A DNA stretch of 64,000 bases from Candidatus Multivorans sp. Its GTDB lineage: Bacteria > Acidobacteriota > Thermoanaerobaculia > Multivoradales > Multivoraceae. The DNA is taken from assembly GCA_965224025.1 (NCBI GenBank), contig OZ245033.1:224001-288000 (forward strand), written 5' to 3'. Under the pieces are notes generated by a model. The model saw only the letters and a list, made by a program, of their open reading frames with translations. It did no database searches and had not been told where the DNA came from. The translations under genes and the position numbers were made by a program. Shown one piece after another: positions 1,440-63,182 of this stretch. Position 1 is the first letter of the stretch; the number at the start of each line of letters is the position of its first letter.

Positions 1440-1625
1440 ATAGAGTTGGCCGCGCTGGGCAGCGAGGCCGCGCAGGCACTGGTGTGTTGGCGCCCGACTA
1501 GGAGTTTGGCCCGGACCGTGATCGGCGCTCTGACGCTGGCGGCGCGGCTTGTGTCGCGACCCCGTATGCAAGATTGAGCTTTTCGCCGCGGTCTCTGCCC
1601 AGCGCGACGATTGGATTCCACATCT
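1440..1625 (+). ncRNA. candidate IS110 bridge RNA (ends approximate)
   Basis: Non-coding left end containing CTAGGAGT (1498-1505, same as left junction 1355-1362) inside a GCGCCCGA/TCGGCGC stem, and ATGCAAGA (1566-1573, same as right junction 3007-3014). Confidence 0.5.
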
Positions 1626-1639
1626 ACGGGAGGCAGGGG

Positions 1640-2959
1640 ATGGCAAAGCGGAAGGCGGAGCGTCTGGAAGTCGTTCACCCGGATTGCGCCGGTGTGGACG
1701 TAGGCAAGCGCAAGCACTACGTGGCGGTGGCCCCGTCGCGTTTCGAGCGGCCGGTGCGCAATTTCTCGTCGTTCACGGAGGACCTCGAGGCGATGGCCTC
1801 GTGGCTTCAGGAGTGCGGCGTGCGTGAGGTGGCGCTGGAGTCGACGGGGGTGTACTGGATTCCGGTGTTCGAGGTGCTGGACCGGGCGGGGTTCGAGGTG
1901 CATCTGGTGAATCCTCGGGCGACCAAGCAGGTGAGTGGCCGCAAGAGTGACGTTCTGGACTGCCAGTGGATCCGGCAGTTGATGAGCTACGGGCTCCTGC
2001 GCGGTGCGTTTCGCGCGCCGGACGAGTTGTGTCCGCTGCGTTCGTACACGCGGCAGCGCGCCCAGTTGGTCCGCGACCGCAGCCGCGCGGTGCAGCACAT
2101 CCAGAAGGCTCTGGTGCAGATGAACGTGCAGTTGGACAACGTGCTGAGCGACATCATGGGCAAGACCGGCCAGTTGATCGTGCGCGCGATCGTCGCCGGC
2201 GAGCGCGACGGCGCGGCGCTGGCCCGTCACCGGGACGGTCGCTGCAAGGCTGGTCCGGCTGTGATCGCGGCGAGTTTGCAAGGCAACTGGCGAGACGAGC
2301 ACCTGTTCGCTCTGGGCCAGGCGCTGGCCCGCTACGACATGCTGCAAGGCCAGATCGAGATGTGCGAGAAGCGCATCGACGCCGAGCTCGACGGCCTGGC
2401 CCAAGACGGCGTCGAGGACGCGCCGCCGCCCGGTTCGAAGGCGCGCGAGCGCGCCCTGCGGAAGCGGCTGCATCGCATGCTCGGCGTGGACCTGGTCGCC
2501 ATTCCGACGGTCGGCGTCGAAACCGCGCTGACCTTCGCCGCTGAGATCGGCCCGGACCTGTCCCGGTTTCCCTCGCAGGGCAACTTCTGCTCGTGGCTGT
2601 GTCTGGCTCCACCGACCAACATCAGCGGCGACAAACGGCTGAACGGCCCTCCCGTGAAGCAGACCAACCGGGTCGGCCAGGCGCTGCGCCAAGCCGCCAC
2701 CACAGCCCGCAACAGCAAGACCGCCATCGGAGCCTCTCACCGCCGGCGTCTCCAGCACATGGAGAAGGCGAAGGCCATCAAGGCCACCGCTCATCAACTC
2801 GGCCGACTGATCTACGCCATGCTGACCCACGGCGAAGAGTACGTCGAGCGCGACCTCGTCGAAATGGAGGCCGTCCGACGCGAACGACAAATCAGAAACC
2901 TGCAGCGTCAGGCCCGCCGCCTGAATCTGGCTCTCGTGCCGACCGAACATGCCGCCTGA
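1640..2959 (+). CDS. IS110-family DEDD transposase/recombinase
   Basis: GVDVGK, VALESTGVYW, KSDVLDCQWI DEDD motifs; AIPTVG..AEIG..SWLCLAP..ISG C-terminal domain; GGGAGG upstream of the ATG at 1640. Confidence 0.95.
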   Translation: MAKRKAERLEVVHPDCAGVDVGKRKHYVAVAPSRFERPVRNFSSFTEDLEAMASWLQECGVREVALESTGVYWIPVFEVLDRAGFEVHLVNPRATKQVSGRKSDVLDCQWIRQLMSYGLLRGAFRAPDELCPLRSYTRQRAQLVRDRSRAVQHIQKALVQMNVQLDNVLSDIMGKTGQLIVRAIVAGERDGAALARHRDGRCKAGPAVIAASLQGNWRDEHLFALGQALARYDMLQGQIEMCEKRIDAELDGLAQDGVEDAPPPGSKARERALRKRLHRMLGVDLVAIPTVGVETALTFAAEIGPDLSRFPSQGNFCSWLCLAPPTNISGDKRLNGPPVKQTNRVGQALRQAATTARNSKTAIGASHRRRLQHMEKAKAIKATAHQLGRLIYAMLTHGEEYVERDLVEMEAVRRERQIRNLQRQARRLNLALVPTEHAA

Positions 2960-3028
2960 ATCGCGCAACCTGCGCTGCCAACAAGGAACCCCTACCCGTT
3001 TGTTCCATGCAAGACTGCGCGGCAGAAA

Positions 3029-3072
3029 CTGGGTGCGCGGGCCTTCTGGCCGCATCCGGCGCGAAGCGCCGG
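3029..3072. repeat. REP-like palindrome family A, degenerate copy
   Basis: CTGGGTGCGCGGGCCTTCTGGCCGCATCCGGCGCGAAGCGCCGG resembles 48156-48200. Confidence 0.6.
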
Positions 3073-3102
3073 TCTCTGGGAGTTCCGCCGCGCTAGCGTC
3101 AA

Positions 3103-3153
3103 CCGTGAACCACTCCGAGCGCCCGTCACCGGGTGCTCGGATGCACACCCGGT
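3103..3153. repeat. REP-like palindrome family B, degenerate copy
   Basis: CCGTGAACCACTCCGAGCGCCCGTCACCGGGTGCTCGGATG resembles the copies at 5424, 50810 and 59441. Confidence 0.7.
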
Positions 3154-3219
3154 AGCGGGAGCGCGGGGAGCTAGGATCGCCGCTTCCGGCGCCGCTGGAC
3201 GGTAGAGGAGACCACAACC

Positions 3220-4293
3220 TTGGAATCGATCGACATCCGGCCTCAGGCGCTGCGGGAAGCAGCAGTCATGATCCTTGAAGCCGGCGGCAGCGGGCCCGAT
3301 GAGGCCCGGATCGTCGCCGACCACTTGGTGCTGGCCAACCTCTCGGGGCACGACAGCCACGGCATCGGCATGTTGCCCGCCTACGAGCGGAGCCTCGGCA
3401 ACGGAACCCTGAATCCGAACCGGAGGGTCGAACTGGTTCGCGACGACGGCGCGATCATGATGTTCGATGGCGGCATGGGCTACGGCCAGGTCGTCGGGCG
3501 CGAGGCGACCGCGGCCACGATCGAACGCTGCCGGAGCACGGGCGTGGTCCTGGCGTCGGTCCGCTACTGCCATCACTTGGGGCGCATCGGCACGTACGGC
3601 GAGCAGGTGGCGGACGCTGGCCTCGCCTCGCTCCATTTCGCCAACGTGGTCGGCCACCAGGCTCTGGTCGCGCCCTACCGCGGCACGGACGCCCGCTACT
3701 CCACGAACCCGATGTGCCTATCGCTTCCGGGCAGCGACAGCCAGCCCGCGATTCTCCTCGACATGGCGACCAGCCGGATCGCCCACGGCAAGGCCCGCGT
3801 GGCCCACAACAAGGGCGAAGAGGTTCCCGCGGGCTCCCTGATCGACCATCGCGGACGCCAGACACGCGACCCGAGCGTGCTTTTCAAGCAGCCGGTCGGC
3901 GCCCTCACCTCCTTCGGAGACCACAAGGGCTACGGCTTGGCGATCTTCTGCGAGCTCCTCGGCGGCATGATGAGCGGCGGCCGCACCGCCCAGCCCGAAC
4001 ACGGGATGGAGGGCACGATCATCAACAACATGTTCATGGTCGTGTTCGATCCGGACCGTCTGATCGAACGTTCGGCGATGGACCACGAACTCGCAGCCCT
4101 GGTCGCCCACGTCAAGGCGTCACCCGCAGCCGACCCGGATGAGCCGGTGCTCGTGCCCGGGGACCCGGAGCGGGCAATAAGGATCGAGCGCGCCGATGCG
4201 ATCCCCGTCGACGCCGAATCCTGGCGCCAGATCGTCGCCACCGGAGAGCGGCTGGGGGTGGCGCCGGGCCGGCTGGAAGCGCTGGCCGGTTAG
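3220..4293 (+). CDS. malate/lactate/ureidoglycolate dehydrogenase (Ldh_2 family, HcxB/YbiC-like)
   Basis: ANLSGHDSHG, HHLGRIG, TNPM, LLDMATS, DHKGYGL motifs. Confidence 0.92.
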   Translation: MESIDIRPQALREAAVMILEAGGSGPDEARIVADHLVLANLSGHDSHGIGMLPAYERSLGNGTLNPNRRVELVRDDGAIMMFDGGMGYGQVVGREATAATIERCRSTGVVLASVRYCHHLGRIGTYGEQVADAGLASLHFANVVGHQALVAPYRGTDARYSTNPMCLSLPGSDSQPAILLDMATSRIAHGKARVAHNKGEEVPAGSLIDHRGRQTRDPSVLFKQPVGALTSFGDHKGYGLAIFCELLGGMMSGGRTAQPEHGMEGTIINNMFMVVFDPDRLIERSAMDHELAALVAHVKASPAADPDEPVLVPGDPERAIRIERADAIPVDAESWRQIVATGERLGVAPGRLEALAG

Positions 4294-56930: not shown

Positions 56931-57359
56931 CTAGGCCACTCTGTCTTCGACCACGAGACTGCGCCCGACGGCTCGAAGGGCGTTCGTGACTCTTCTGATG
57001 TGCGAGTAGCGGTCCGGATCGAGCAGCTTACCGACGGAGGCCTCGTCCAACCCGAGCTGCTTGGCCAGGGACGCCTCGTCAAGGCCCTGTTCCCGCATCG
57101 CCGAATAGAGCGCCAGCTTTGCGGCGGGAACGGGTGGAACAGCCACGACTTCCTGACCCTCCACGACGGAGCTTGGGGGCGGAAGGTCCTCGCCGTTGTG
57201 GACGTAGGTCGCGAGTATGGCTACAAGGGCGTCCGCCGCCATTTCCAGAGCTTCGGCTCGGTCGTCGCCGCACGTCAGCGCGCCCGGAACGTCGGGGAAG
57301 ACGACGAAGAAGCCGCCGTCTTCCTCCGGGTTGAGAACACACGGATAGGCATAGCGCAT
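56931..57359 (-). CDS. hicB: HicB antitoxin with C-terminal HTH
   Basis: YPCVL..FFVVFPDVPGALTCG..EALEMA; AKLALY..LAKQLG. Confidence 0.9.
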   Translation of the reverse strand: MRYAYPCVLNPEEDGGFFVVFPDVPGALTCGDDRAEALEMAADALVAILATYVHNGEDLPPPSSVVEGQEVVAVPPVPAAKLALYSAMREQGLDEASLAKQLGLDEASVGKLLDPDRYSHIRRVTNALRAVGRSLVVEDRVA

Positions 57360-57460: not shown

Positions 57461-57463
57461 TGG

Positions 57464-57527
57464 CCGGATGCGGGCAGGATGCCCGCGTTCCCAAGGGCGG
57501 ATGCGGGCGAGACGTCGGCGCACCCAG
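57464..57527. repeat. REP family A doublet
   Basis: CCGGATGCGGGCAGGATGCCCGCGTTCCCAAG plus GGATGCGGGCGAGACGTCGGCGCACCCAG. Confidence 0.8.
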
Positions 57528-57550: not shown

Positions 57551-59359
57551 TCAGGTCTCGACCCTGCTCATCAGCCGGGCATCGGTCACCGGGTAGTGGC
57601 AGAGCGTTTCGTCGCATGCCTGGTAGTCGATCAGGACCGTCGCCACGCCGCCCTCGCCCTCTAGCGGCACCTCGACGCGGAAGTCGCCGTGGATTCGGCC
57701 CTCGCCGTCGGCTTCGGGCAGCACGGGGTCGGCGGCCACCTGGTAGGCGAAGCCGGATGGGGCACGGACGCCGAACTTGAACTCCGCGTCGGAACCGGGG
57801 GCGTAGATCCAGAACCCGGGTTCGAGCTTGAAGTCGAGAACGGCCAAGGTTGATTCGCCGTCGGTCGTCGTCGACATGGTCACCTCGACCGCGGGGCTCA
57901 CGGTGACGGAGAGATCGTCCAGTTCGTCGCCGTCCGCCGCGAACCGGGAGGAACTGAGCAAGTCCGACCCTCCGGGGCCCTGGGCGGCCCGGAATCGGTA
58001 GCCGGCCCAGTCGGAGGCGAAGAGCGAGGGCCCGTTCTCATCGAGCCAGCCCTGCCAGCCGTCCGCGGAGTCATGGCTCACGCCGGCGTAGCGGGCCAGC
58101 AACCGCTCGGCCCGCTCGGGCTCGACACCTTCACGCAGGTCGGCGACCGCGCGTTCGAGCAGGGCCGGGTCGTTGTTGGCGATCCCGAGCGCTCTGGCGT
58201 CCGCGTCGACCTGGAACTGTCCTTCGAGCCGGAAGAACGCCTTGCCGTCGTACTCGCTGCCGATCCGCCCGCCGTCCCAGTAGAGATACGGCTCGTTCTC
58301 TTCGTACCAGGCCTGCCGCTCTTCGCGGGAGCCGCGCGCCGCCGCCGGAATCGCCTCACCGAAGCTGTACGTGAGGCCCCGATCCTGGGCCTCCTTCACC
58401 TTCTCCGGCGTGTCGTAGAACTCCTTCATGTCCTCCGTCTCGTAGAGATCGAGGAGAGCGAGGGAGGTGGCGAGCCCCTCGCGCGGACGCGCTTCGCGAG
58501 TGGCCAGGATCGGATGGTCCCTGAAGCCGTGGATGTAGTGGACGGCGTTGATCAGGAGGCGCTGGCCGGTCTCCGTCATCTCGTCCGGGGTGCCGTAGAA
58601 CCCCCACTGCAGCAGCCGCCCCTGGCGGCCGATCGCGAAGTAGTCCGGCCCCTTCAGGTGCATGCCGCCGGCGATCCACTCGGTGTCGGGCGAATCGAGA
58701 AAACCGTCGCCCGTCGTCACCACGCCCGCTTCGCTCTTGTCCGGCCGCTCGCCGACGGGGAGGTTCAGGGTGTCCCATTCCTTCTTGAGGATCTTGACCG
58801 TGGTCATCGTGTCCGGGACGTCGTCCGTCAGTTCGTAGTACTTGTACTTGGGTGGGGTCGGCACCTCCTCGAGCTCCAGCTCGATCGGCAGAGGTCCGTG
58901 GAAGATCGGATGGCCAGAGGTCGGATCGGACGTGGACTGTGGCACGACAGCCCTGGAGAACAAGCACAGTCACCCGTATCGCCAGCCCAGCAGCAGGTTC
59001 AGGTCGTCCGAGATGCGAGCGCCCTGGCCGCCGATCAGGACGGTGGGCATGGACAGGGTCTCCAGATCGACTCCCTCCGCTCCCGGGATCGTCTTGATCC
59101 GCTCTTCCGACCGGTCGATCGTCTGGCCGTCGACGATCAGGACGTCGGCGTCGCTGAGGTCGGCCTTCGCCAGGTCGTTGCGGGCGATGCTCCGCACCTC
59201 GAAGTGCTCGGCCAGCAGCGCGTGGTAGCCCTCCGCGTGCGGCGTGCCGGCGTCGCCGGCGTAGACGACGCGCAGTTGCGGCGCCGGTTCGGCGCTGCAT
59301 GCCAGCGTGAGCAGCGCTGCGGTTGTCGCCAGGAAGCCAAGCCACTTACTCTGTTTCAT
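57551..59359 (-). CDS. putative selenoprotein lipoprotein (Sec130 in U-L-C) with C-terminal DsbD-N-like domain
   Basis: Two ORFs in the same frame separated only by TGA at 58970-58972; lipobox TLAC; PGFWIYAP..DYQACDETLC; SECIS-like hairpin downstream. Confidence 0.75.
58934..58953 (-). promoter_or_regulatory. candidate bacterial SECIS hairpin
   Basis: GGGCUGU-CGUGCC-ACAGUCC; stem starts 16 nt after the UGA; G at loop position 2. Confidence 0.6.
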
Positions 59360-59440
59360 GGGTACATCCTCATCGCGTTTGAACGTCAGGCAGTCTAGCT
59401 GGCGGTCCAGAAACCGGCGCTGCGCGCCAGATGCCGGCCA

Positions 59441-59530
59441 GAACCCGGGTGGCGCGACCCGCGTCACCCGTGAACCAGTCCGTGCGCCCGTCAGCGGGCG
59501 CACGGATGGCAGCCCGGCGCACCCAGTGGG
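59441..59530. repeat. REP-like palindrome family B
   Basis: Near-identical to 5424-5512. Confidence 0.88.
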
Positions 59531-59575
59531 CGGCCAGCTCCATGCGAATCAGCACCCAGTTCTTCGCATCGCACG

Positions 59576-60109
59576 CTACGCGCAGCAGCCGCGCCGCCGC
59601 TGATCCGAAGCCGTCGGTGTGTCCAGCGAGTACACGTTGAACTGCCGCAGCGGCGGCGAGTAGATGTGGAGCGTGATCAGGTCCTCGCCCGACGGCTGCG
59701 TGTTCGCGACCTGGTGGCAGTCGTCCTCCTCCGACGCGCAGACGCGGCCGGCTCCGTGCTCACGGCGGCCGCAGGGGCAGATGAGGCCGGATGCCGTCGG
59801 CTCGAACTCGGTCTCGGTCGCCACGCCTTCGACGACGCGGAAGGCGCAGCTCGAACCCCGGTGGTCGTGGATCGGGGTCCGCTGGCCGCTGGACCAGCAC
59901 AGGCAGACCAGCTCGTACCAGTCCGACTCGGCGATCCGGTTGCGCTGGTACTTGTCCTCGCCGAAGCGGCAGGCGGCGCCGAGGTCGGCGCGCGTCACCG
60001 CGATGTCGCCCAGGAGCCGGCTCAAGACCTCCAGGTCGGCGCGGCCGTCGAGCGAACCCAAGTAGTCCAGCAGCGGACCGAGCCGGCCCGCGGACGACCC
60101 CGAGTTCAC
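59576..60109 (-). CDS. cysteine dioxygenase family cupin
   Basis: YQRN, LCWSSGQRTPIHDH, HQVAN, TLHIYSPP; GGAGG before the GTG at 60109. Confidence 0.88.
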   Translation of the reverse strand: MNSGSSAGRLGPLLDYLGSLDGRADLEVLSRLLGDIAVTRADLGAACRFGEDKYQRNRIAESDWYELVCLCWSSGQRTPIHDHRGSSCAFRVVEGVATETEFEPTASGLICPCGRREHGAGRVCASEEDDCHQVANTQPSGEDLITLHIYSPPLRQFNVYSLDTPTASDQRRRGCCA

Positions 60110-60117
60110 CAGCCTCC

Positions 60118-62970
60118 CTACATCGACCACCGGATCCCGAACTGAGCCGAACGCTGCGGTCCGCGGCTCCGGATTCCTGGAAAGTCATCGATAGTAACAG
60201 TGCCGGGCTCGCCGATACGGCCGCTGTTGTTGTAGCTGCGCAGACCGTTCATCTCGATCGCGTTCGTCCGGTCGGTGGCGTTGAAGACGTCGAGAAAGAC
60301 GTGAAGGTCGTGCCGTTCTCTGACGGTGAACGTCTTGGCCAGACGCACATCAGCCGAGAAGTAGTCCGGCGCGTTCCTGCTGTTGAAGCCCTCGAAGAGA
60401 TCCTGCGGATAGGCGGCGAAGCCCCCAGGTGAGCGTATGAACTCTGAGTCCCGGACGGTGAAGGGAGTGCCGGACCGGTAGTCCAGGAAACCAGACAGTT
60501 GGAGGCCCCAGGGCAGGTTCCCCACCGCTGAGAGCTTGTAGCTGTGCTCCACCGCGGTGTTGAGCGGCCCATTGAAGAGCGCGGGCGGGTTGTCCAGACC
60601 CTCGTATTGAGCTGCCCGATTGAGGGTGGAGTTGCCCGAGATCAAGTCGAAGTACGAACTGCCGACGGCGTCCTGATTCGTGTAGCTCACATGCACCAGG
60701 GAGCCGTTGGCAAAGCGGCGCTTGAACTCGACATCGACATCGAGGACCTCGCTGTATCCCGTGTTGGTGTAGAAGAGGATTTGTCCCCTGGTGGGATCGG
60801 GACGCGCTCCGTCGTGCTCGAACGACACCCTGTTCTGGAAGTCCGTAAAGAAGAGGCCATCGCTGTCGGAGCCGAAGACGTGGATGCTCAACGTATTGCG
60901 CTCACCGAGCTGGCGCTCGTAGCCCACGTTCCACTTGACGATCTCGGGTAGGTGGAGGTTCGGGTCGACGATTAGCTCGCGAGGGGTCGAGCCCGGTCTC
61001 GTCGGGTCCATTTCGAGAGTCACGGGATCGATCGGCACGTTGAAGAGGAGCGGCGGCCGGCCAGCCCCCGTATGGCCGATCAGGTTCGTCCGATCGTGAT
61101 ACAGCCCGGCGCCGAAGCGGAGGACGGAACGGCCGTTCCTCCCGACATCGACGGCAGCGCCCAGCCGCGCCTCGACGGTCTGGTCGTCGACCAGGTTGTT
61201 CCGGTCGTAGCGCCCGCCGAGGTTGAACGTCCAGCGGTCGTTCACGAACCAGTCGTCCTGGATGAAGAGATGGCTGTTCGTGACCGAGACGTCGATGTCG
61301 GTCGCGAATTGGTACACCCCACTGGCCGGAGGGACGGAGAAGTCGTCGACAAACCCATAGCTCCAGTTGCGCCACGCCGGCTGCTCGGTTCGCTGACCGA
61401 AGCGCTCCACGCCGACGCCGGCGCGCAAGGAATGATCCCCACGGAGCCAGGACAGGCGTTCCTTCCACTGGAAGCTCTCGAGCGTGTTGTCGACTTCGGG
61501 GCCGATGGAGCCCTCGAGGTGAAAAACGAGGCCGCCATCCTCGTGGAAGTAAAGACGCAATCGCCGCAACGGATCCGAGGAGGTTTCCATGCTCCGGTCG
61601 GCCTGAATCTGCCCCAGCACCGATTCAAGCGTCATGTCCGATCCCACGGCGGCGACATGGCGCGCGGACAGGCCCAGGGAGTCGTTGGCATGATCCTGAT
61701 GCTCTATGTCTTGCTGGCGGGAGCGGAAGAGCGAGTGCCCGATGGCGGCCTGCTCGCTAACCCAGTTCCCCGACACCGTCAGGTCGTTCGAGTCCGAGAA
61801 CTGGTGGGTCAGCTTGCCGGTCAGGCGGTCGCGGTTGGTGACGTTGGCGGTCAGCCCCAACTCGACCGGCACGGAGCGCGTGAAGACGTGGCTCTGGTTG
61901 TAGTCGTAACCCATCTCATAGTCGTCGTGCTCGTAGCTGGTGAAGAAGTGGGTCGTGCCCCGGTTGACGGGGCCTCCCAGGGTCAGCGAGGCCTGCCTGA
62001 TTGTGAAGTCCTGGCCCTCCAACTGTTCCGCGTCGTCCGCCGTCGCCCCGGTGAACCCCGCTTCCACCACGCCGTCGTGCTGTTGCTGAACCGTCGCCGA
62101 GGCGTTGTACTGGTCGGCCCCGGAGCGGGTGATGATGTTGATCACACCTCCGGACGCGTTGCCGTACTCGGCCGAGAACATCGAGGTCGACACCTGGACC
62201 TCCTGGATGGCGTCCAGGTTGTAGGTCTGCAGCGCCGTTCCCGTCGAGAAGGTCGATCCCCTCTGGCCGCCGCCGGAAGAACTCCGGGGGCCAGCCCGGG
62301 TCTCGGACGTGGCCAGGTCGTCGTAGTTCAGGTCGCTCAGGTCGTTGTTGGCTACGCCGTCGATCAGGAACTGGTTCTGGTTCATGCGCGCCCCGTGAAC
62401 GCTGAAGCTGTTGTTGGGGGCGCTGTTCTCGAGCCCGCCGACCGCAAGCCCCCCGTGGACCCCCGGGAGGATCTTCAGCACGTCCAGGAAGCTCCGGTTC
62501 GGGAGCGGCAGGCTCTGGATCTCCTCGAAGGTGATGTACTTGTTCACCCGGGAATCGACCGACTCGATCTGCGGTCGCTCGGAGACGACGGTGATCTCCT
62601 CGCTCACTTCCTCGGCGGCCGCGAGTTCGAAGTTCACGCGCTGAATGCTGCCGACCCGCACCGCCAGCGACGCGGGGGCGCCGGCATAGCCGGTGGCCTC
62701 CACCGAAACCTGGTAGGTCGCGGGGCGCACGTTGGTCGCGTTGTAGAACCCGTCGGCGTCGGTGGTGACGACGAGCGGCTCCTCGATCTCCTGCGACTGC
62801 AGGATGACGGTCGCGCCGGAGACGGCAGCCCCCTCGCTGTCCGTCACGTGGCCGAGCACCTGGCCGGTGGGACCCTGGCCGGCGGCCGGCGCAGCTACCA
62901 GCAGCAGCACGGCCAGCATCATGGCCCAGCCCACCGCCTGCGCGTGTCGAGTTCTCGTCTCGTTGAACAT
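60118..62970 (-). CDS. TonB-dependent receptor with carboxypeptidase-regulatory-like N-domain
   Basis: Signal peptide, GHVTDSEGAAVSGATV, LPLPNRSF, FSAEYG..GGVINIITRSG, FIQDDW, terminal QFGIRWSM. Confidence 0.93.
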   Translation of the reverse strand: MFNETRTRHAQAVGWAMMLAVLLLVAAPAAGQGPTGQVLGHVTDSEGAAVSGATVILQSQEIEEPLVVTTDADGFYNATNVRPATYQVSVEATGYAGAPASLAVRVGSIQRVNFELAAAEEVSEEITVVSERPQIESVDSRVNKYITFEEIQSLPLPNRSFLDVLKILPGVHGGLAVGGLENSAPNNSFSVHGARMNQNQFLIDGVANNDLSDLNYDDLATSETRAGPRSSSGGGQRGSTFSTGTALQTYNLDAIQEVQVSTSMFSAEYGNASGGVINIITRSGADQYNASATVQQQHDGVVEAGFTGATADDAEQLEGQDFTIRQASLTLGGPVNRGTTHFFTSYEHDDYEMGYDYNQSHVFTRSVPVELGLTANVTNRDRLTGKLTHQFSDSNDLTVSGNWVSEQAAIGHSLFRSRQQDIEHQDHANDSLGLSARHVAAVGSDMTLESVLGQIQADRSMETSSDPLRRLRLYFHEDGGLVFHLEGSIGPEVDNTLESFQWKERLSWLRGDHSLRAGVGVERFGQRTEQPAWRNWSYGFVDDFSVPPASGVYQFATDIDVSVTNSHLFIQDDWFVNDRWTFNLGGRYDRNNLVDDQTVEARLGAAVDVGRNGRSVLRFGAGLYHDRTNLIGHTGAGRPPLLFNVPIDPVTLEMDPTRPGSTPRELIVDPNLHLPEIVKWNVGYERQLGERNTLSIHVFGSDSDGLFFTDFQNRVSFEHDGARPDPTRGQILFYTNTGYSEVLDVDVEFKRRFANGSLVHVSYTNQDAVGSSYFDLISGNSTLNRAAQYEGLDNPPALFNGPLNTAVEHSYKLSAVGNLPWGLQLSGFLDYRSGTPFTVRDSEFIRSPGGFAAYPQDLFEGFNSRNAPDYFSADVRLAKTFTVRERHDLHVFLDVFNATDRTNAIEMNGLRSYNNSGRIGEPGTVTIDDFPGIRSRGPQRSAQFGIRWSM

Positions 62971-63182
62971 GTCCTTCGCTCCCTTTCGGTTCCCGGCCTT
63001 CGCGATCTCGAAGCTGCCTGCACCGGAGGTCGTCCGACCCCCGGCCACCGGGCACACTTCAAACGGCTTGGACAGACTATGGGCAGGGCATACCCGATAG
63101 CTTGATCCAATCCCGAGCCGAAGTTGATCGGACTTGAAGCGATAAGCAACCAGAACGTGAGCCGGTCCGCTAGAATCCGTCG

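Follow-up and report, generated by a model that had tools for sequence, protein, structure and literature searches.

Does the TGA that interrupts a long minus-strand reading frame of Candidatus Multivorans sp. separate two genes, or is it the selenocysteine (Sec) codon of a single longer one? The locus lies in a window of 64,000 nucleotides (nt) of contig OZ245033.1 (assembly GCA_965224025.1, positions 224,001 to 288,000), and the coordinates of the locus given here are those of the window. Two minus-strand open reading frames (ORFs), 58970..59503 and 57551..58963, share a common frame and are separated by a lone TGA (58972..58970). Read-through from the ATG at 59359 yields a protein of 602 residues, in which the TGA becomes residue 130 of the motif WRYG-U-LCLF. 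The whole gene (57551..59359, minus strand) would extend from the ATG (59359..59357), preceded by GAGGA 9 nt 5' of it, through the UGA read as Sec at codon 130 (58970..58972, minus strand), assigned by translation and by alignment with orthologs and homologs, to a stop at 57553..57551 that is a TGA too. Cys132 (58964..58966, minus strand), the partner of U130 in a U-x-C motif, is nearly invariant in an alignment of 64 sequences. A putative signal peptide (59297..59359, minus strand), recognized from the sequence and its orthologs, ends at Cys21 in L-T-L-A-C (residues 17-21), which resembles a lipobox under the usual rule; orthologs retain L-[TA]-[LS]-[AG]-C. The initial annotation of this DNA had proposed a hidden exported lipoprotein with Sec at this point. 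Its ORF coordinates were reproduced exactly, its joined translation of 602 residues with WRYG-U-LCLF agrees with ours, and the lipobox that it had claimed was located as a lipobox-like sequence. In our reading, 59359..57551 is very probably one gene, encoding an exported and probably lipid-anchored selenoprotein of 602 residues with a redox role in the envelope, in which UGA-130 is recoded by means of a selenocysteine insertion sequence (SECIS). Judged from sequence, that it is a genuine SECIS-dependent selenoprotein gene appears highly probable.

In a single genome, a lone in-frame stop resembles a recent nonsense mutation or an error in base calling, and the gene could then be a pseudogene or the TGA a product of sequencing or assembly. 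However, the TGA is shared well beyond this genome. In a first draw, the gene was present in 11 of 24 genomes of the same genus, every copy having exactly one in-frame TGA, and was not found in genomes of other families of the same order (0 of 16). A wider draw, counting the window's own genome, retrieved it from 23 of 41 genomes of the genus, again with one TGA in each copy (23/23). The genus orthologs have 82-96% protein identity on either side of the TGA, and the variation on both sides is of synonymous type. The TGA was likewise present in all 20 close loci from public metagenome-assembled genomes (MAGs) of the Multivorans clade, and Sec forms occur independently in Planctomycetota. Two contigs span the codon, one from a DNA-like run (58791-59041) and one from an RNA library (58750-59136, from a relative of about 92% identity), and neither lists an alternative letter at 58970-58972. 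RNA-library contigs cover the gene in part, and the bare stretches are uninformative either way. These observations refute a pseudogene or an error at the TGA, to which we give practically no weight, and with it the concern raised in the initial annotation that reads might show TGC or TGG.

Outside the genus, homologs carry either Sec or Cys at this position. A scan of one genome per species gave 79 loci, in which 77 sites were read; the DNA at the aligned site was TGA in 48 and TGC or TGT in 29. Among 173 homologous proteins, 89 have C-x-C at the site, three have G or S, and 81 start downstream of it. Where a residue is present, U130 aligns to the first Cys of C-x-C (89 of 92 homologs), and Trp or Arg was found in none of the 92. 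Cys as against Trp, Arg or Gly was the distinction on which the initial annotation had staked its claim, and Cys is what the homologs have, the three with G or S apart. TGA forms comprise all 20 Multivorans-clade loci, other Acidobacteriota (G-U-M-C-L-Y-N-R-A-V-V) and many Planctomycetota, in which the motifs KLDWL-U-LCL, GGAG-U-TCL and KTGYL-U-NCM are found. Cys forms are encoded in Bacteroidota (KLDWL-C-LCLDADAHH...HPIF), Woeseiaceae, Rudaea, a Microbacterium MAG and Aquisphaera. The motif WYCLCL...HPIF.GP, ascribed to Bacteroidota homologs in the initial annotation, is real, since loci L076 and L106 read DWYCLCL...HPIFKGP. A quick maximum-likelihood tree of 74 rows, from which L054, L060 and L082 were left out as too short or containing N, requires at least five changes between Sec and Cys, at least four of them forced by well-supported branches. 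Three loci contain two Sec-containing paralogs a few kb apart, namely L057 (4310 and 8245), L065 (2305 and 4322) and L066 (3910 and 5278); the pairs in L065 and L066 are different subfamilies or recent duplicates.

The same comparison bears on the possibility that the TGA is a true stop, with a gene for a 129-residue lipoprotein adjacent to a second gene for a separate protein of 459-470 residues. Public gene calls do hold the downstream part alone, as a 'hypothetical protein' of 459-464 aa, and TTG and GTG start codons are found just 3' of the TGA at 58972..58970. Nevertheless, reading frame, TGA and flanking residues on either side are all conserved across phyla, and the full-length Cys forms cross the site uninterrupted. 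One compact ThuA-like fold, predicted for residues 25-281, would span the TGA. The hairpin, the Sec machinery and the phyletic match of Sec and Cys forms, described below, also point away from two genes, and we regard this arrangement as highly improbable. As for the homologs that start downstream, 53 of the 81 do so at most 35 residues from the site, and for this reason they look like gene calls truncated at the UGA. Nearly half of the homologs collected resemble calls cut short in this way.

A SECIS-like hairpin (58934..58953, minus strand) follows the UGA within the coding sequence (CDS). It consists of a 5' arm GGGCUGU (58953..58947), a loop CGUGCC (58946..58941) and a 3' arm ACAGUCC (58940..58934), forms a 7-bp stem that starts 16 nt after the UGA (spacer 58969..58954), and is part of the minimum free energy fold. 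The stem length, loop and offset described in the initial annotation were all recovered. The apical loop CGUGCC has an early G, and the structure is conserved. In 12 genus genomes the 20-nt hairpin is invariant at the nucleotide level, whereas the codons that precede it vary synonymously (CTG/CTA, TGC/TGT, TTG/CTG). A codon alignment of these 12 genomes has 182 codon-invariant columns among 478 usable ones, and the longest invariant run in the gene, eight codons (S135-S142), is the hairpin; other runs reach six or seven codons.

In other clades, the Sec forms have stems of 7-8 bp at a spacing of 15-16 nt, with differing stem sequences and G-containing loops. One variant stem, GGGCCGU/ACGGCCC, differs from that of the window by a change of U-A to C-G and of G.U to G-C; further stems are UCGCGUA/UACGCGA, GGGCGCA/UGCGCCU, AUGCGCA/UGCGUAU and GCGGCUCA/UGAGUCGC. 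Across the Sec forms, loops read CGUGNC, CGKGN, UGN or GGC. A contiguous stem of at least 7 bp located 15-16 nt after the UGA was detected in 31 of 40 distinct Sec sites and in none of 29 distinct Cys sites, two sets of unequal G+C content (0.61 vs 0.47). Because the Sec set is the more G+C-rich, shuffled sequences are the fairer control, and 3.9% of 8000 shuffles satisfied the same stem rule. Base pairing was also evaluated on two alignments. In ten Planctomycetota-type sites, 98.6% of the cells were paired and three of the seven pairs showed compensatory changes; the covariation score was reached by none of 500 shuffles, and slid controls were 4-53% paired. In eight window-type sites, pairing was 100%, with one compensatory pair (U-A to C-G) and a score reached by 7 of 500 shuffles.

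The genome (5.14 Mb in three contigs) encodes selA (434 bits), selB (308 bits, together with its C-terminal part) and selD (257 bits), as well as a tRNA-Sec with anticodon UCA (74.8 bits with Rfam; tRNA-SeC by ARAGORN). The set of selA, selB, selC and selD, whose absence would have told against the initial annotation, is complete. We detected selA in all 41 genus genomes, in 40 of them above the cut-off. Beyond the genus, selA was found in the three Sec-form genomes checked (L056, L072 and L065) and not found in the two Cys-form genomes checked (L088 and L083). The selenoprotein gene is accessory in the genus (23 of 41 genomes) while selA is present in all 41.

The machinery would have other clients in this genome. 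Four further genes contain an in-frame TGA (L118-L121; G000:C1:4440787-4441998, 930890-931549, 4529169-4529888 and 3794179-3795600). They comprise a member of AhpD_rel_CFYUT (341.5 bits, cut-off 175), two members of the UGSC family (148 and 125.5 bits, cut-off 125) and a Prx-like gene, below the NCBIfam cut-offs, which reads GGW-U-PYC. All four have hairpins of 7-8 bp that follow the UGA by 12-16 nt; their loops are CGGGC, GUG, GUC and GGU. When open frames of the whole genome were scanned for a TGA with a hairpin, 622 candidates emerged, and four plausible ones were verified. Most candidates are Arg-rich non-coding frames or copies of a dispersed repeat, and such a scan therefore does not discriminate in a genome this rich in G+C. 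The alpha subunit of formate dehydrogenase, FdhA, is the commonest bacterial selenoprotein; no Sec-type FdhA was detected in the genome above the TIGR01553 cut-off (best 62 bits), and the Sec machinery is apparently not maintained for it.

Reading of UGA-130 without Sec, for example by near-cognate insertion of Trp or Cys, was also considered. Low-level near-cognate read-through of UGA occurs in bacteria, and Sec at this codon is a prediction from sequence. However, a SECIS-type hairpin at the canonical distance accompanies the TGA forms only, and selA was found in TGA-form genomes and not in the two Cys-form genomes. TGA is not generally reassigned, because ordinary stops include TGA, the stop of this very gene among them. 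Read-through of this kind is thus very improbable. Sec insertion at this locus is canonical. SelB and tRNA-Sec would recode UGA-130, recruited by the hairpin within the CDS 16 nt downstream.

To which fold does this residue belong? An AlphaFold2 model built on 64 sequences (mean predicted local distance difference test score 87.6, predicted template modelling score 0.78) divides the protein into three parts. The N-terminal domain (approximately residues 25-281; 58517..59287, minus strand), which carries U130, C132 and H150, is predicted by the model and its fold matches to be ThuA-like or class I glutamine-amidotransferase (GATase)-like. Its matches are 4jqs (Z 12.7), 3rht (Z 11.7) and 1t0b (Z 11.6), with 186-193 aligned residues; many GATases also match (Z 10-11), and Foldseek retrieves GATases at E ~1e-4. 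The middle domain (approximately residues 285-475; 57935..58507, minus strand) contains helices and a long beta hairpin, according to the secondary structure of the model. The C-terminal domain (57554..57925, minus strand) resembles the immunoglobulin (Ig)-like domain of DsbD-alpha and of the ScsB N-terminus, and contains Q580, C582 (57616..57614) and C587 (57601..57599). Residues 479-602 match the ScsB N-domain with Z 12.4 and DsbD-alpha with Z 10.7. The nearly invariant residues of the family in the 64-sequence alignment are C/U130, C132, H150, Q580, C582 and C587.

The sequence models say less than the folds. With E values up to 1, the only Pfam match of the read-through protein was DsbD_N (PF11412), with 16.9 bits, under the cut-off of 25; no ThuA or GATase model was matched. 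Homologs do pass DsbD_N, with 33 bits in L076 and 29.5 bits in a separate gene of L088. NCBIfam release 20, including its selenoprotein models (TsoA, UGSC, GOS_B/C, DG/DW/DF), gave no family at E up to 1. The main ~450 residues of three Cys-form homologs were also without a family, NCBIfam again giving none. The initial annotation had recognized the DsbD-N-like domain and its YQAC....C thiols. The domain has a clear fold match alongside its weak Pfam match, and the motif was found as YQAC-DETL-C, with C582 and C587. The ThuA/GATase-like fold of the Sec-bearing domain, and its membership of a large, often Sec-containing family, had been missed.

Within the N-terminal domain, the model places a strand at 106-109, a helix at 110-119 and a strand at 130-133, with a conserved H-P-I-F after U-x-C. 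The amidotransferase elbow would fall at G110-G113 (G-G-Q-G), which contains no Cys and is unconserved in the family, and the domain appears to lack the classical amidotransferase nucleophile. U-x-C would sit on the strand that follows the nucleophile elbow, a placement deduced from the order of elements in the model and not from coordinates. The domain thus resembles ThuA-like proteins and class I GATases (4jqs, 1t0b, 3rht) in the overall fold of residues 25-281. It differs from them in matching no sequence model, in apparently carrying U/C-x-C on the next strand, and in being exported and redox-linked. The C-terminal domain shares with DsbD-alpha and the ScsB N-domain the Ig-like fold and a Q-x-C...C-x-P Cys pair in the equivalent place. 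However, it is fused to, or encoded beside, a ThuA-like domain instead of the DsbD membrane core, and its spacing is C-x4-C. Known partners of DsbD-alpha are thioredoxin-fold proteins; the presumed partner domain here is not of that fold.

We lean towards a function as an envelope selenol/thiol reductase that is recharged via the DsbD-alpha-like domain. U130 and C132 would form a selenylsulfide or selenol-thiol redox centre on a beta strand of the ThuA/GATase-like domain, and the protein's own C-terminal domain (C582/C587) could hold this centre reduced. TlpA-like thioredoxins and the DsbD envelope reducing pathway may in turn feed the C-terminal domain. The enzyme would then reduce a periplasmic compound or protein, probably one brought in by the adjacent TonB-dependent receptor. 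In the Multivorans clade, the substrate may be a disulfide whose thiol product passes to the neighbouring cysteine dioxygenase (CDO) homolog.

This scheme draws on gene neighbourhoods. In the window, a CDO_I cysteine dioxygenase type I homolog (59579..60130, minus strand; Pfam CDO_I E 1e-15, no signal peptide visible) and a TonB-dependent-receptor-like outer membrane protein (60121..63057, minus strand; CarboxypepD_reg, Plug and beta barrel) lie upstream on the same strand, as had been noted initially, and L038 and L041 have this pair ahead of the gene as well. A related receptor-like gene comes before the selenoprotein gene in L056, and a DsbD_N-Redoxin protein after it. The L056 receptor-like gene appears as two overlapping ORFs, 977-1564 (CarboxypepD_reg) and 1542-3752 (barrel), for which a frameshift, an assembly error or recoding are possible. 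In Bacteroidota, the gene is found within clusters of SusC/SusD and TlpA-like (DUF4369-Redoxin) genes; the literature searched on DUF4369 contained nothing on its function. DsbD_N is a separate adjoining gene in Flavobacterium L088 (3249-3764), Pedobacter L099 (5305-5817) and Pirellulales L065, and a full DsbD is encoded near the L088 gene (7149-9188). In Woeseiaceae, a TonB-dependent receptor is located 3' of the gene. TonB/SusCD receptors thus adjoin the gene in Acidobacteriota, Bacteroidota and Woeseiaceae. The fused and split forms of DsbD_N, like the thioredoxin and DsbD genes nearby, speak for an envelope reducing pathway that would keep the U/C-x-C centre reduced, and the adjacent receptors point to a substrate that may be imported. 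The envelope thiol/selenium redox module hinted at in the initial annotation gains from the conserved TonB/SusCD, TlpA-like and DsbD neighbours in other phyla; the module itself is something that we infer from them. More tentatively, as a possibility somewhat short of even, we propose that a large and unrecognized Sec family bears U-x-C at a non-canonical site of the ThuA/GATase fold and acts with a dedicated DsbD-alpha-like domain, TlpA-like thioredoxins, DsbD and a TonB/SusCD importer as an envelope system of a new kind, which would reduce an imported substrate in the periplasm before its uptake.

The main alternative concerns function. The selenoprotein could use U-x-C mainly as a soft-metal site (Cu, Hg, Zn), acting as a periplasmic metal chaperone or detoxifier together with a TonB-dependent receptor. 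C-x-C and U-x-C motifs bind soft metals, and metal chelates are often imported through TonB-dependent receptors. Structurally, the C-terminal domain is matched best by ScsB, from a copper-sensitivity suppressor system. A Cu/Zn efflux transporter with UxC is also listed in Table 1 of a 2026 review (PMC13188914). However, the repeated linkage with TlpA-like proteins, DsbD_N and full DsbD indicates a supply of reductant, not metal handling; in the neighbours scanned, we saw neither a metal transporter nor a metal-sensing regulator, nor any additional metal-ligand motif. A mainly metal-binding role is thus unlikely, and redox and metal roles are not mutually exclusive.

Several observations weigh against reading this gene as an envelope redox selenoprotein with a SECIS, beside the base-composition difference, the sub-threshold DsbD_N score and the placement of U-x-C by element order given above. 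Sec in the protein is a prediction from sequence, and the RNA support is a single low-depth contig of a relative that could be carried-over DNA. The folding energy of the 86-nt region is ordinary (z = +1.0; 167 of 200 shuffles fold as well or better). As the energy of this single hairpin is not special, the case was built on the comparison across genomes. Under the strict rule, nine of the 40 Sec sites are without a contiguous stem of at least 7 bp, and two show none. The hairpin does not vary inside the genus, and the covariation comes from distant relatives only. RNAalifold found no consensus structure in a mixed ungapped alignment of 12 Sec-site sequences; because that input mixed 5- and 6-nt loops, pairs were counted on the two register-consistent alignments. 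A covariance model of the ten Planctomycetota-type hairpins, dominated by their primary sequence, missed the window hairpin (6.7 bits, E 5.1), and Rfam gave no SECIS family in 58700-59200 at E up to 10. Finally, the CDO homolog appears to be a cytoplasmic protein, and a gap of 217 nt with a dispersed repeat in it separates it from the gene. For these two reasons, the link of CDO and the selenoprotein gene in one operon is weak.

How widespread is the family, and has it been described? A profile search retrieved 357 representative clusters (50% identity) at E <=1e-30 and 723 at E <=1e-10. Members are frequent in Planctomycetota and among sponge-associated Acidobacteriota, and Cys versions are encoded in cultivable Flavobacterium and Pedobacter. 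Protein-atlas look-alikes of a natural Cys homolog fall into clusters labelled 'hypothetical' or 'DsbD N-terminal domain-containing'. The window gene belongs to a large Sec/Cys family that was not found described or modelled in the sources searched. The families of Haft and Tolstoy 2025 reportedly have NCBIfam models, none of which matches the read-through protein. Full-text searches found nothing relevant on selenoproteins with DsbD and Planctomycetes, or on selenocysteine with ThuA, and supplements may still list the family. Table 1 of the 2026 review lists 119 families and subfamilies of prokaryotic selenoproteins, and no entry there matches the architecture of the window protein; under UxC it has a thioredoxin-like protein (PF13192) and the SO_0444 transporter (PMC13188914). 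In the 2008 GOS paper, the UxC entry is pfam07610. Nothing similar was present in the accessible portions of deep-Sep (PMC12013277), or in those of BSepDB (PMC13326102) or one supplement, where DsbD, ThuA, UxC and PF11412 were absent.

Known selenoproteins resemble this one in part. UGSC (NF041046) and the AhpD-related CFYUT family (NF041238) also have an in-frame UGA, a hairpin within the CDS 12-16 nt further on, an early loop G, homologs with Cys, a motif of redox type and an annotation that is cut short. However, they are different families, and the protein described here has U-x-C, not UxxC or CxxU, on a fold that is not thioredoxin-like. Some Planctomycetota members read L-U-L-C-L, a superficial resemblance to the L-U-L-A-x-C of the LULAXC selenoprotein TsoA (NF045695), which gave no match at E up to 1 and has UxxxC in place of UxC. 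Also of the amidotransferase fold class is a selenoprotein with a GxUxG motif (PMC13188914, PMC12013277). There, judging by the motif, Sec replaces the canonical nucleophile Cys, whereas G-U-L-C in the window protein lies on a different element, has no NCBIfam hit and belongs to another architecture and location.

Systematic mis-annotation of the family conceals its signal peptide, the N-terminal 129 residues and the residue of the active site. Recognizing it would add one to the ~119 listed prokaryotic families, with the unusual pairing of a non-thioredoxin fold and U-x-C. Because Flavobacterium and Pedobacter, both cultivable, carry Cys versions, the function of the recurring set of TonB/SusCD, TlpA-like and DsbD genes, as yet unexplained, can be tested genetically. 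The neighbourhoods point to a possible coupling of periplasmic reduction with some TonB-dependent import.

A HicB-like antitoxin gene (56934-57359, minus strand) is located just 3' of the selenoprotein gene. Both intergenic flanks, 59414-59547 and 57463-57525, are copies of dispersed short repeats. Each has at least 40 further matches across the genome with 75-100% identity (first-look candidates numbered 265 and 306), and in a metagenome run their depth is very high. The upstream repeat, in certain frames, reads 'HPCARURAHGL', with a TGA and a strong hairpin, and contaminates naive SECIS scans.

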